This document shows positions 2,193-7,427 of a stretch of 64,000 bases of DNA, piece by piece. The notes below the pieces were generated by a model, which saw only the letters and a program-made list of their open reading frames with translations, had not been told where the DNA came from and ran no database searches. Within the stretch, counting starts at the first letter, position 1. The number at the start of each line of letters is the position of its first letter. A program made the position numbers and the translations under genes. Source of the stretch: a virus; IMG/VR virus record IMGVR_UViG_3300037475_000071, positions 1 through 64,000 of that record; one strand, written 5' to 3'.

Positions 2193-2645
2193 TCAAAGAG
2201 CTTTTTGCATTTTCAACATGTTCTTACGCATTGAGCCGTATTCGCAGTTCTGATAAAACTTCACAGCACGATAACCAAGTTTGAAATAAAGTGTCTGCGC
2301 GGGATTCTCAGTATGAACGAGTAGCGTTATGCTGTCGTAACCGAGTTCCACGAAGTGTCGCTCACACTCTGCTACCAGAGCAGAAGCAACACCTTTACCA
2401 CGACTCTTGCTGGCTACGTCGATGCTAGCGATGTGAGGAACCTTGCGGTCAACCCACGCAACCAAGAACCCAATAACGTCGTCATCAGTCTCTGCAACCC
2501 ATACCTGAGCTTTAGGGAGGTTTTCCTTAAACTCGACTAAGTTCCACGCGACTCCAAATTCAAAACACTCCCGCTCTATCTCGCGCAAGCGCGGAATCTC
2601 GTCTGGCCGATAGCCGCTGCGCACTTTGAACGAGAGCTTCTTCAC
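2193..2645 (-). CDS. GNAT (RimI-like) N-acetyltransferase
   Basis: Motif A V-x-x-x-x-RGKGVA and motif B N-P-A-x-x-LY-x-KLGY. Confidence 0.85.
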   Translation of the reverse strand: MKKLSFKVRSGYRPDEIPRLREIERECFEFGVAWNLVEFKENLPKAQVWVAETDDDVIGFLVAWVDRKVPHIASIDVASKSRGKGVASALVAECERHFVELGYDSITLLVHTENPAQTLYFKLGYRAVKFYQNCEYGSMRKNMLKMQKAL

Positions 2646-2648
2646 TGA

Positions 2649-4147
2649 TTAAACTCCGCGTTGTTGAAAATATCTGTAGGTAAATCTTTCCTGCGCACAC
2701 AGTCGAACAGCGAGCGCCAAAGACGTTACACAGTCGTCGTAAAAACCTTCAGGAGCTTCGAACTGAATCGTGCCACCTGCGGTTTCCTTGTACTGGAAGC
2801 GTTGAAGCTCGTCGATAAGAATGGGAATTTCTGGGTAAGATATTCTTCCTTGCTCAAGCTCTACGCGGAGCGTATCAATCAACTGTCGTTTAGCTACGTT
2901 GCTGCCAATCTTGTAGGGCTCAATTACGAGGCCACAACCCTGTAACGAAGAAACAATAGGGTCGCCAATGCCTGTAGAGTCGATTGAGATGGTCGCGTTG
3001 TAGGCACGCGCAGTCTGAATGATTTTCAGAATCTGAATCTGCCAGTCAATCTGATTGAAACGTTCCCAATAAACAACGTGCTTGGTTTCCCTGTCCATCA
3101 CGGTTAGAACCGTGTAGTCATGAAGGCGAGCCAAGTCAACGCCCATAACATAAAAGTGGTCGGGCTGACGTGCAGTAAATCCGCCAGGGCGAACGCAACC
3201 TTTAATGTTGCGGAAAACTCCGGCTGACTCGTTGATGAACTCCGCCATGTATTCTTGGCGGAAGGAATCGGCGGGAAGGTTTCTCTTCGCATCCTCGATT
3301 GCCTTTCTAGGCACATGAGGGTTAGCCGCTGTCGGCATTTTTAACGAGTACCATTCGGGCCACTCGGTGGGATATAACTTGCGGTCTCCGCGACTAAAGA
3401 GATCGTAAAACCAGCCCCTTCCGTTGGGGGTGGAAATAATAATTCCGCGGCCATTCGTCTGAGTAACGGTCGTTAATACCGACTCGAAACTTGCGAACGG
3501 CATACCACGTGCTGCCTCGTCGATAATGAAGAACGACACGGCGGCACCGCGAAGTAAATCTGGGTCTTCTGCGGACTTGAAATCAATGAATGAACGGTTG
3601 CTGCCGTCTGGGTTCAGAACCGTTATGCGGTGCTTAGCTACTTGTTCCCGATAGAGGCCGTCGGGCAAACGACGTTTTACTTCTTCCATAGCCAAGTCTG
3701 ACTGGCTATACGAGGGTGCTACCCACCAATTAGTGGTGCCTGCATTTTCCCACGCTTCTTTAACTATGCGGGTTGAACAGCCGTACGTTTTGCCAAAGAT
3801 GACAATGCCCCTCGATTCGAAAACCGAGAGGCCAACTCCTTAGTTCCGCAGGCACCTACGATGAACCGTAGGCCGGGAAACATGAAAGGCAATCCTTTCG
3901 CATCGACTCCGCTGGGAAGCCAACTAGGAATAAATTCTGCCGTTATAGGAGTAGGGTTATCTGGAACAAAAAAGGGATTTAGTTTTGCTTCTTCAGGATG
4001 TACGTGGCATTCCCAAGCGTTAATTAACTTATACTGCTCCACACTGTGCGCCGGAGGTAGGGCCAACGTAACTGGCTTCCATACTTCCTTCGACAAAACA
4101 CTCTTCACTGTGTTCTTGTAAGGCTTTGCGGCCGCTGTTCTCGACAT
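2649..4147 (-). CDS. terL: terminase large subunit, interrupted by a 41-nt insert (join 4147..3839 + 3797..2649, ~485 aa)
   Basis: Joined frame gives Walker A FIVGACGTK|FGKT, WWVAPSY, Walker B FFIIDEA, STPNG, and nuclease acidic motifs GVDLA, DSTG, DDCV. Confidence 0.9.
3798..3838 (-). other. 41-nt frame-shifting hairpin insert in the terL Walker A codons
   Basis: GAGTTGGCCTCTCGGTTTTCGAATCGAGGGGCATTGTCATC between AAG (K) and TTT (F); 11-bp stem with UUCG loop at 3807-3832. Confidence 0.8.
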
Positions 4148-4604
4148 GTCTATAGTCCGTTGCCTTATCTCTTTTGGCGGAGTTGCAACTACCACACAGC
4201 GGTTGAATATTGGAAATTATATTTGGGCCGCCTACGCTACGAGGAATAACATGGTCAGGTGTTAGGGTGATTTCAGGCTCGCATTTACCACAGCACAAGC
4301 ATTTATACCCGCAGTCAGCTTTCAATCCTACCCATTCTTCAACAGTCAAAATACCTACTATGCCCTCTTTGGCACACCTGTAATTAGCCTGATATACAAT
4401 GTAGTCATCGTGGTTATCAGCTTGACGCCGCATTACCTGCTGAATTCTCACAGTACGGTGCTGTCGGTAGTTCTTTTTCTTCGCCAGCAGTTCGCACTCC
4501 ATGCACTGTCTCCTCCAATAATTCCCCCTGTCTGTTCGCAGGCGAAAATTCTCCTCGGTCAGAGGCTTGGGGATATTGCACGTTTTGCAGGTTCTCATTT
4601 CCAT
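4029..4604 (-). CDS. HNH homing endonuclease
   Basis: CKTC...CMEC zinc finger, CLCCG...DHVIP...GG...NIQPLCGSCNSAK. Confidence 0.9.
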   Translation of the reverse strand: MEMRTCKTCNIPKPLTEENFRLRTDRGNYWRRQCMECELLAKKKNYRQHRTVRIQQVMRRQADNHDDYIVYQANYRCAKEGIVGILTVEEWVGLKADCGYKCLCCGKCEPEITLTPDHVIPRSVGGPNIISNIQPLCGSCNSAKRDKATDYRHVENSGRKALQEHSEECFVEGSMEASYVGPTSGAQCGAV

Positions 4605-5127
4605 TAGTCAATTCCGGGTGTGAAACAATGTGTCCTTGAATTACAGGAACAGATGCCGAAGTTGGGGGCTGCATTCCTACAGAGGCAGTAAACTGAAATT
4701 TTTCTACGTGAAGCGTGCCCAAATCTTTAGGAAGCACACCCAAATCCTGCAAGCCCTTCACATAGTCCTGCTGCAACTTGAAAGAAGATTTCTGGTGCTC
4801 CAAGTACGTCATCGTACCGAGCTTGGCTTTCTGTGCGCTCTTCTCGATGTTGCGCATTACCTTGTTGAAGCACAGGCGAAGGTCGGCGAGTATCAGCCCT
4901 ACGTCTTCGTCCTTTACTTCCTCTGCGACAGCTTCACGGATGGCCTTGCGGTCGTTGGCAATCGTGCGGTCGGAAACTCCGAACAGTTCCGCCGACTCGC
5001 TGATAGAGGGGCAGTCGTCGCCCGGCCGGGACATCAGGTAAGCAACAACGTGCCTACGCTGCTCTGTCGTCAGGGGCTGCTTCTGCCGCGCTAAGTCCAG
5101 CCATTGTTCGGCTTGGATGATTGCCAT
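4417..5127 (-). CDS. putative terminase small subunit
   Basis: N-terminal HTH (ISESAELFGVSDRTIANDRK) plus helical region; immediately upstream of terL. Confidence 0.6.
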   Translation of the reverse strand: MAIIQAEQWLDLARQKQPLTTEQRRHVVAYLMSRPGDDCPSISESAELFGVSDRTIANDRKAIREAVAEEVKDEDVGLILADLRLCFNKVMRNIEKSAQKAKLGTMTYLEHQKSSFKLQQDYVKGLQDLGVLPKDLGTLHVEKFQFTASVGMQPPTSASVPVIQGHIVSHPELTNGNENLQNVQYPQASDRGEFSPANRQGELLEETVHGVRTAGEEKELPTAPYCENSAGNAASS

Positions 5128-6680: not shown

Positions 6681-7427
6681 TTAAAGTTCACCAAACCAGT
6701 CAATGTCTCCTACTTCGGCTGGTTCTATTCCGGGTAATGGCTTAGCGGTATTATAGCGTTTCTTGAGTCCCCTTCTCTTAGGTAAACTTTTTTCCTTAGC
6801 CTGCGTTTTTGCGTCGGCCCAAATGCAGTTAGATTTGTGATACGGCCCGTCCCCGTCAACACGATGAATGGAAGTGTTTGGCGGCCTTGGCCCCATATCT
6901 CTCAAGAATGTTTCAAAGTTGTCCCATTCCTCATCTATAGTGATACCCCTACCCCCGTATCGCCAATAACTATGACTGGTGGGGTCTAAGCAGCGTTGTC
7001 GCATAGACTGCCAACTTCTGTATTCTGGCGTCCCACTTAAACCGTGTGTAACGGAAGATTCCGCCTTATGATTACCGCAACTCTGAGTTTGGCCGGTTTG
7101 CAAATTACCGTGCATTGCAATAATGGTCTTACCGCACTCACAGAGACATACCCACTTCGTCTGCCCGTTCTCTCTGGCGGCAAATGATTGCACGGTTAGC
7201 TTACCGAACGTTTTACCCGTAAGGTCTACTCTGACGCCCCGCACCAGACACCCACAGCTCTTAGTCAAACCTGCGCGTAAATTACCTGCTCTAACCTCCG
7301 TTGTTTTACCACAATCGCAAATACATAGCCATACAGCGTTTCTACTCTTATCAAAGCGCACTATAGATTGCGCTGTGAGAAGACCGTACCGCTGCCCGGT
7401 CAAATCCAATCGCTTACCTTTTGCCAT
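6681..7427 (-). CDS. HNH-type homing endonuclease with duplicated N-terminal domain
   Basis: Two DLTG-x-x-F/YG-x-L...W-x-C-x-C-x-CG repeats, SW-x-SM-x-x-RC, YGGRGI, DMGPRP...NCIWA. Confidence 0.85.
   Translation of the reverse strand: MAKGKRLDLTGQRYGLLTAQSIVRFDKSRNAVWLCICDCGKTTEVRAGNLRAGLTKSCGCLVRGVRVDLTGKTFGKLTVQSFAARENGQTKWVCLCECGKTIIAMHGNLQTGQTQSCGNHKAESSVTHGLSGTPEYRSWQSMRQRCLDPTSHSYWRYGGRGITIDEEWDNFETFLRDMGPRPPNTSIHRVDGDGPYHKSNCIWADAKTQAKEKSLPKRRGLKKRYNTAKPLPGIEPAEVGDIDWFGEL

Follow-up and report, generated by a model that had tools for sequence, protein, structure and literature searches.

The interrupted large terminase gene of a soil phage

The large terminase gene (terL) analyzed here lies on the minus strand of the window, by which we mean the whole 64,000-nucleotide (nt) stretch comprising the first 64 kb of the 100,155-bp IMG/VR virus record IMGVR_UViG_3300037475_000071, a soil phage genome rated by CheckV as 100% complete. 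The gene is broken inside the Walker A motif of its ATPase domain by a frame-breaking insert, or coding gap, of exactly 41 nt (3798-3838, minus strand), which is absent from the homologs spanning the site. The 5' part of the gene (TerL-N; 3839-4147, minus strand) has 103 codons from ATG 4147 to AAG 3841-3839 and terminates in the first half of the Walker A motif, GACGTK. The 3' part (TerL-C; 2649-3797, minus strand) resumes with FGKT in the -1 frame and runs for 382 codons from TTT 3797-3795 to the stop at 2651-2649, encompassing the remainder of the ATPase domain and the nuclease domain, with Pfam matches to Terminase_6N and Terminase_6C. Frame 0 on the minus strand reads ...FPGLRFIVGACGTK up to the AAG codon at 3841-3839, continues across the insert as ELASRFSNRGAL..., and under ordinary reading is ended by a TAG at 3766-3764; in the related contig L086 it is instead ended by a UGA at the position corresponding to 3814-3812. 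The -1 frame opens past a TAA at 3842-3840 and reads GVGLSVFESRGIVI-FGKTYGCSTR... The true start of terL is ATG 4147 (MSRTAAAKP), which is kept in L086 and in a second related contig, L087, and the predicted joined TerL has 103+382 = 485 residues.

A search of 5.8 billion proteins recovered more than 1,500 relatives of terL. In the inspected homologs that span the site, the motif takes the form GACG[TS]K[FWY]GK[TS], with no residue between the lysine and the aromatic position and no in-frame insertion of about 14 residues. The nearest intact relative among the proteins (P0005, 83% identical) reads FPGLRFIVGACGTKFGKTYGCSTR, and the nearest at the DNA level (L087, 87% identical) reads ACG AAA TTT GGT AAG ACG. 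Given that the homologs are unbroken at this motif, exact deletion of 3838-3798 yields the family consensus and restores the Walker A motif, and no sliding of the junction is possible at the nucleotide level. The alignment of homologs across the P-loop thereby fixes the junction and bears out what the initial annotation had read from the letters alone, namely a 41-nt break in Walker A whose removal gives GACGTKFGKT and a TerL of approximately 485 residues, with frame 0 otherwise stopping at 3764.

Terminase_6N is matched at a single locus in the whole record, and neither TerL_ATPase nor Terminase_3 has a match anywhere in this complete genome. The interrupted gene is the only large-terminase gene of the phage and, as the genome is complete, the gap must be overcome. 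In the public annotation, terL (P0004; 2649-3695, minus strand) is called from an internal methionine (MEEVKRRL...), with neither half of the Walker A motif included. This call is wrong, since selection acts on both parts of the gene, on each in its own frame as far as the insert (see below). The nearest cultured relative of the protein is from the Tunturiibacter phage Tunturi_4 (48%), and a scan of GTDB genomes returned distant terminases only, at 43% identity or less.

Recovery of the insert in independent assemblies and its selective constraint

The interruption recurs in data sets assembled independently of the IMG/VR record. A Logan contig from X1, the probable source run, produced by an independent assembler, covers 3124-4521 with 0 differences, whereas a Logan contig from run X3, which belongs to a different study (a microbial fuel cell metagenome), aligns to 3213-4079 with 88% identity and 0 gaps. 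The soil contig L086 from the Joint Genome Institute (JGI) belongs to the X3 lineage, with all of the 17 listed differences being common to both (totals 103 and 104). Base by base, its insert is of equal length to that in the window and carries 4 substitutions. The N-terminal fragment of the same lineage was also found by a protein-level search as P0124, which ends in GACGTKELASQFSN followed by the stop. Run X1 additionally holds minor-variant terL contigs (2860-3153, with 26 differences over 232 nt), indicating that related strains coexist in the same soil sample.

Comparison of the window with L086 shows that both parts of the gene have been under strong purifying selection. For TerL-N (over 4066-3839) the synonymous divergence (dS) is 0.76 and the ratio of nonsynonymous to synonymous divergence (dN/dS) is 0.094; for TerL-C the corresponding values are 0.56 and 0.049. 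On the 5' side of the insert, 9 of 10 nearby substitutions fall at third positions of frame 0, and on its 3' side (3797-3700) all 12 fall at third positions of the -1 frame, including synonymous changes in the two codons directly 3' of the insert (TTT>TTC and GGC>GGA in L086). This flip in the phase of substitution across the insert implies that both halves are translated, each in its own frame, up to the insert itself. The insert is likewise constrained: 4 of its 41 nt have changed, as against 27-48% at silent sites (P<=0.002 if the rate is taken as 0.30, 3e-5 if it is 0.39). Three of these 4 changes fall in the stem of the hairpin described below, where they keep or improve pairing. G3825A and C3814U are partners in one pair that changes from G-C to A-U in L086, and U3815C converts the G.U pair 3824-3815 to G-C. 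Judged from these sequence patterns, the insert is real, frame-breaking and selectively kept rather than being an assembly artefact or the mark of a pseudogene. The initial proposal of a recoding or removal element, as opposed to damage, is upheld by the selection on both halves, the constraint on the insert and its presence at the same length in a diverged lineage.

Structure of the insert

The greater part of the insert folds into an extended hairpin (3801-3838, minus strand), the first base of which is the base directly 3' of the AAG codon. From the base upwards it consists of 2 bp (GA/UC), a symmetric 4x4 internal loop (GUUG/AUUG), a core stem of 11 bp (3807-3832, minus strand) and a UUCG loop at 3821-3818; this UUCG-capped 11-bp stem is as initially drawn, and folding agrees with it. 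The core hairpin has a dG of -15.6, and the 41-mer as a whole folds with a dG of -18.5 kcal/mol (z -4.2) in the window and -19.6 (z -4.7) in L086, into an identical structure. A further helix between the flanks (CUAAGGA/UCUUUGG), which had been suggested to bring both junctions opposite each other, can be drawn for the window; the minimum-energy fold does not include it, an A.C mismatch arises in it in L086 through the synonymous TTT>TTC change, and we do not retain it. The hairpin is present once in the 100-kb genome even when 3 or fewer mismatches are allowed, and Rfam gave no match at E<=1 within 3600-4200.

Two runs resembling Shine-Dalgarno (SD) sequences are associated with the insert. 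A perfect SD-like heptamer, UAAGGAG (3836-3842, minus strand), spans the 5' junction, with its UAA closing the -1 frame, and is unchanged in L086. A second run, GAGGGG (3808-3813, minus strand), forms part of the 3' arm of the stem and is kept in L086. Its AGGGG portion ends at 3808 and is followed by a 7-nt spacer (CAUUGUC) and then by the triplet AUC (3798-3800, minus strand; AUU in L086), an arrangement that is also kept in L086 and has the geometry of a ribosome-binding site. The AUC/AUU triplet comprises the sole bases of the insert outside the extended hairpin, lies directly before UUU, and would be in the P site should decoding restart at UUU.

Other interruptions of the terminase Walker A loop

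The same loop is a hot spot for insertion among relatives of this terminase. In six of them (L016, L023, L075, L079, L096 and L103), an intein separates K from T of the GKT, at a point 9 nt downstream of the insert site. These P-loop inteins (GK|...HN|T) are in-frame elements of approximately 140-360 residues, with A, L, K or C as the first residue, and some of them contain a LAGLIDADG-like motif. A profile search with the N-terminal region further uncovered seven short proteins of the family (P0129, P0130, P0131, P0133, P0134, P0135 and P0136) which break off inside the loop after K, F or FG, stopping a few codons past GACGTK, GACGTKF or GACGTKFG; their tails include GSAPP..., as well as ASAP, ALAPLSKTA and GVAPQSLER, each of these three directly preceding the stop. 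Conversely, the C-terminal protein P0043 has an unrelated leader ending in ...GLFGPFI, followed by FGKT. These eight proteins look like products of further frame-breaking inserts, staggered within the same loop. The longest contigs of P0129 and P0056 match in length (31,753), as do those of P0136 and P0113 (59,893), suggesting that each pair lies on the same contig. The truncated homolog calls P0011, P0072, P0105, P0111 and P0120 may represent additional interruptions.

At the DNA level, a second frame-breaking insert was found in the IMG/VR relative L202 (1415-1510), where 71 nt follow FG (GGU). It forms a near-perfect hairpin of approximately 60 nt (-47 kcal/mol), with GGU at its base, a frame-0 UAG at its apex and a 10-nt tail after it, and the triplet that precedes the resume codon AAG is AGC, which matches GGU at 2 of 3 positions. 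The insert lengths in the window and L202, 41 and 71, are both 2 modulo 3, and in both the resume codon lies 10-11 nt past the 3' base of the hairpin, as counted in the window from the 11-bp core stem. One G is missing from a G-run further along the L202 gene (L202:2265-2275, at ...ISW|EAQY...), with a resulting shift of frame; this terL may be decaying or mis-assembled, and we treat it as a lead only. When IMG/VR was scanned with patterns matching the insert or a P-loop with an interruption, nothing or only chance matches in unrelated open reading frames (ORFs) came back, and a search for related loci with P0130 returned intact relatives only. A distant prophage terL on a contig of a metagenome-assembled genome in GTDB (L141) shifts frame approximately 20 codons past its Walker A motif (GRRWGKT), after ...HAWESP, with no visible insert; a simple frameshift or an error of long-read sequencing is the probable cause.

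Proposed programmed bypassing and the alternative explanations

The most likely source of full-length TerL is programmed translational bypassing, a reading to which we assign about an even chance of being correct. That the ribosome is the agent which skips the gap, and the place at which it lands, we infer from the features of the locus. In this mechanism, the ribosome would decode through GACGTK to the AAG codon, meet the stable UUCG hairpin that starts at the very next base, disengage, and restart in the -1 frame at UUU GGC AAA ACG (FGKT). Three junction products can be envisaged. Exact skipping would give GTK|FGKT, the canonical motif in both lineages, with landing set not by anticodon pairing but by the AGGGG situated 7 nt before AUY. 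If only the 38-nt extended hairpin were skipped, the product would be GTK-I-FGKT, and the C3798U difference of L086 would then be synonymous. Finally, a matched hop from UUU 3823-3821 at the hairpin tip to UUU/UUC 3797-3795 would give GTK-ELAS(R/Q)-FGKT; this UUU-to-UUY pair is the only cognate pair that lands in frame before GKT, is present in both lineages, and adds 5 residues. In constructs of bacteriophage T4 gene 60, a mini-SD at this spacing permits low-level resumption of translation without anticodon pairing (preprint 10.1101/2024.12.09.627546). Bypassing stands first among the options enumerated here, at about even odds for the three products taken together.

Several observations weigh against bypassing. 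Exact excision would lack a cognate codon on which to land, AAG and AUC/AUU pairing at one of three positions, and no stop or rare codon follows either AAG (GAG, 23.7 per 1000 in the codon usage of the phage) or UUU (UCG, 10.9 per 1000). The analysis of codon pairs in the initial annotation had come to the same result, with no stop after AAG, AAG and AUC unmatched, and a UUU-to-UUU hop giving GTKELASRFGKT. The product of that hop lengthens a loop which no inspected homolog extends, and at a position that is K or R throughout the family it would have R in one of the two lineages but Q in the other. Uninterrupted relatives (P0005 and L087) have an N-terminus homologous to TerL-N, and no nascent-peptide signal borne by the cassette is evident. 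A search of sequencing runs showed the sequence in no RNA run. Furthermore, the insert-bearing lineages with DNA number two, and the covariation consists of one double change and one wobble change.

Three other hops were considered and rejected. Take-off at AAU/AAC before a rare CGA (in the window) or the stop UGA (in L086) has no in-frame landing site; a UUG-to-UUG hop of 30 nt over the hairpin stays in frame 0 and is unproductive; and an AAG-to-AAA hop of 50 nt would remove FGK.

Among the competing explanations, removal of the insert from the RNA and a terminase working in two pieces are both unlikely, though each accounts for certain features of the locus. An endoribonuclease of the host or phage could excise the 41 nt as a mini-intron, with the ends rejoined and ordinary translation yielding GACGTKFGKT. 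Exact excision gives the perfect family motif in both lineages, a precise hop of the ribosome is not explained by any cognate codon pair, and the insert is close to being one compact hairpin plus 3 bases which starts exactly at the 5' junction. However, at 41 nt it is far below the size of group I/II introns (200 nt or more), as the initial annotation had rightly recognized; the splicing which that annotation nevertheless entertained as a removal route is disfavored, given that the insert has no Rfam match, that no RtcB or RNA_ligase match exists in the phage, and that in L086 pairing is weakened in the flank helix, by which the two junctions would be aligned. A search of the phage with T4 Rnl1 also gave no match, but the control likewise matched nothing. 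We know of no bacterial mRNA splicing of such a mini-intron kind. As for the two-piece terminase, TerL-N (103 residues plus the frame-0 tail) would be released, and TerL-C would start at AUC/AUU 3800-3798 by termination-reinitiation or coupling, with the two assembling non-covalently. The AGGGG stands at an optimal 7-nt spacing from the near-cognate start AUC in the window or AUU in L086, the frame-0 stop UGA of L086 immediately adjoins it, and the frame-0 tail is of 25 residues in the window as against 8 in L086, as would be expected of an irrelevant tail. Against this, the P-loop would be cut between K and F with extra residues left at the ATP site, no working split of this kind was seen among the homologs inspected, AUC and AUU serve poorly as start codons, and pairing within the stem sequesters the SD-like run. 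Moreover, L202, itself possibly defective, has no start codon of any kind before its resume codon.

Less likely still is that the ribosome shifts frame, or makes a short hop, early in the insert. Most of the insert would then be read in the -1 frame and TerL would gain 7-14 residues (e.g. GVGLSVFESRGIVI) before FGKT. The -1 frame is indeed open from 3839, 2 of the 3 changed -1-frame codons in L086 are synonymous (UCG>UCA and AUC>AUU), GIVIFGKT formally matches GxxxxGKT, and the matched pairs GGA/GGA and GAG/GAA are available. Yet no slippery heptamer of the form X XXY YYZ occurs in 3850-3797, with only UUG lying between AAGGAG and the stem; no inspected homolog has an insertion in this loop, the glycine-rich character of which would be lost to bulky hydrophobic residues; and the L086 substitutions are fully explained by stem pairing. 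The least probable explanation, and one already largely refuted, is that of a non-functional gene or artefact, such as an assembly error or a hairpin resembling a miniature inverted-repeat transposable element (MITE) in the terL of a defective element. The possibly decaying L202, with its 71-nt palindromic insert in the same loop and a later 1-nt deletion, shows what such a case might look like. In the phage analyzed here, on the other hand, the insert recurs in independent assemblies and studies, purifying selection has been strong on both halves since the lineages split, the insert is constrained and has undergone one compensatory change, and a complete 100-kb genome carries a single terL.

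Returning to programmed bypassing, we tentatively put forward a bolder version, which is possible even if the balance of probability lies against it. Ribosomes would skip exactly 41 nt without a cognate landing codon, the hairpin and AGGGG together setting the landing, and the insert would belong to a previously undescribed family of hairpin gaps that have repeatedly colonized the Walker A codons of terminases, possibly protecting them against homing endonucleases. That the benefit of the insert lies in disrupting a DNA site targeted by homing endonucleases is a conjecture.

Comparison with known recoding systems and insertion elements

The closest parallel is the 50-nt coding gap of T4 gene 60, homologs of which occur in the topoisomerase genes of myoviruses (Manning and Atkins, preprint 10.1101/2022.08.31.505936; T4 record NC_000866). 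In the gene 60 cassette, a UUCG stem-loop stands at the take-off site, the landing site is preceded at 5-7 nt by an SD-like motif with an A/U-rich spacer after it, and there are 6 changes in 50 nt at a dS of approximately 0.4, two of which preserve a pair (10.1101/2022.08.31.505936). Both systems comprise a frame-breaking insert of tens of nt in an essential phage gene, with a stem-loop capped by UUCG, starting at the take-off site and kept by pair-preserving changes. Both have an SD-like motif before the resume site (the T4 mini-SD 6 nt before the landing codon, the AGGGG of terL at 7 nt) together with an A/U-rich spacer, both keep nearly every position at a dS of approximately 0.4-0.7, and in both a gene for an HNH homing endonuclease lies nearby. 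The differences are equally clear. The host genes, terL here and topoisomerase in T4, are distinct and the inserts have no sequence homology; terL lacks a matched pair of codons at take-off and landing for clean excision and a stop or rare codon after take-off; the hairpin fills most of the terL gap, leaving 3-9 nt to the resume codon where T4 has 26 nt; no N-terminal peptide carried by the cassette is evident; and the HNH gene is missing from the other insert-bearing terL lineage, which sets the insert apart from a MobA-type mobile element. The terL element is best filed as a variant of programmed bypassing which fails two features of gene 60, namely the matched codons and the stop or hungry codon.

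Candidates for bypassing have also been described in terminase genes themselves: those of the Streptomyces phage Hau3 and of two prophages contain UUA-led inserts of 7-10 nt (PMC10732093). As in the present case, these are frame-disrupting blocks at a conserved junction of the large terminase, with flanks that match uninterrupted homologs and with a proposed stem-loop and SD-like signal. They differ in their length of 7-10 nt and in a rare UUA in the A site that acts as a sensor of host state, whereas the insert described here has 41 nt, no rare codon and a location in the Walker A loop. The byp elements of Magnusiomyces capitatus mitochondria are also short inserted blocks that put protein-coding genes out of frame and for which translation makes the correction (PMC5009743). 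Unlike the terL insert, which occurs in a single copy in a phage genome served by bacterial-type translation and has no unused codon after its candidate take-off sites, the byp elements are mitochondrial, occupy 81 positions in one genome, and depend on an unused A-site codon and relaxed mitochondrial decoding. The P-loop inteins of terminases share the insertion hot spot, but they keep the frame, extend over hundreds of codons and are spliced out of the protein, in contrast to a 41-nt frame-breaking insert. Two further classes were tried and set aside: a programmed -1 frameshift of the dnaX type, there being no slippery heptamer in 3850-3797, and a group I/II intron or described RNA family, the element being of 41 nt only and having no match in Rfam.

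In the literature, we found no description of a hairpin gap in a terminase P-loop, either in print or as a preprint. Experiments have demonstrated long-distance bypassing in yeast mitochondria and in essentially a single gene family, that of T4 gene 60 and homologs; the terminase cases in print are the 7-10-nt candidates. If the terL gap is indeed bypassed, it would offer an independent natural system for testing what sets take-off and landing, anticodon pairing or the combination of SD and structure. There are also consequences for annotation, as the public terL call omits the ATP-binding loop and several relatives look similarly mis-called. More generally, the element has a bearing on the arms race between phage genes and the homing endonucleases and inteins which target the terminase P-loop.

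The HNH endonuclease gene and other neighbors of terL

The gene for a free-standing HNH endonuclease (4029-4604, minus strand) is situated between terL and the gene further upstream (4417-5127), and matches Pfam HNH_5 (2.4e-12) and HNH in addition to phage endonuclease families of PHROG. Its assignment as an HNH gene in the initial annotation is borne out by these domains. The spacing given there, approximately 200 nt upstream of the terL break, does not hold as a distance between genes, since the terL start at ATG 4147 places terL inside the end of the HNH ORF, the final 119 nt of which it overlaps. The HNH domains, together with a presence/absence polymorphism at one intergenic site, are those of a homing endonuclease: approximately 450-520 nt at the HNH site in the window are replaced by 83-117 nt in L086 and L087, and contigs from runs X2 and X3 diverge from the window at 4079 and lack the HNH gene at this site. 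The HNH insertion has also replaced the C-terminal end of the upstream gene 4417-5127, homology of which to L086 and L087 stops at 4599 and 4706.

The 41-nt insert is found without the HNH gene in L086, its closest bearer among relatives (and in X3), and L087, the closest relative without the insert, has neither. The HNH gene is separate from the insert, given that the insert-bearing L086 lacks it, and comparison of these contigs marks it as an insertion of the free-standing homing-endonuclease type that is polymorphic independently of the 41-nt insert. The cassette of an endonuclease plus a protective insert that was initially proposed is not supported, and neither is the co-variation of the insert with the HNH gene that such a cassette would predict. 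A 'hit and run' history linking the HNH gene and the insert may be considered, with co-variation not being seen in the window, L086, L087 and X3.

The gene 5' of terL (4417-5127, minus strand) has no Pfam or PHROG match and is helix-turn-helix-like by eye only; it may encode the small terminase. Directly 3' of terL, and starting 4 nt past the terL stop, lies a gene for a GNAT acetyltransferase (2193-2645, minus strand), which is unusual in a packaging module. A second free-standing HNH gene (6681-7427, minus strand; PHROG 374, E 7.5e-74) is located 2 kb from the first, and the genome is seemingly rich in homing-type nucleases.

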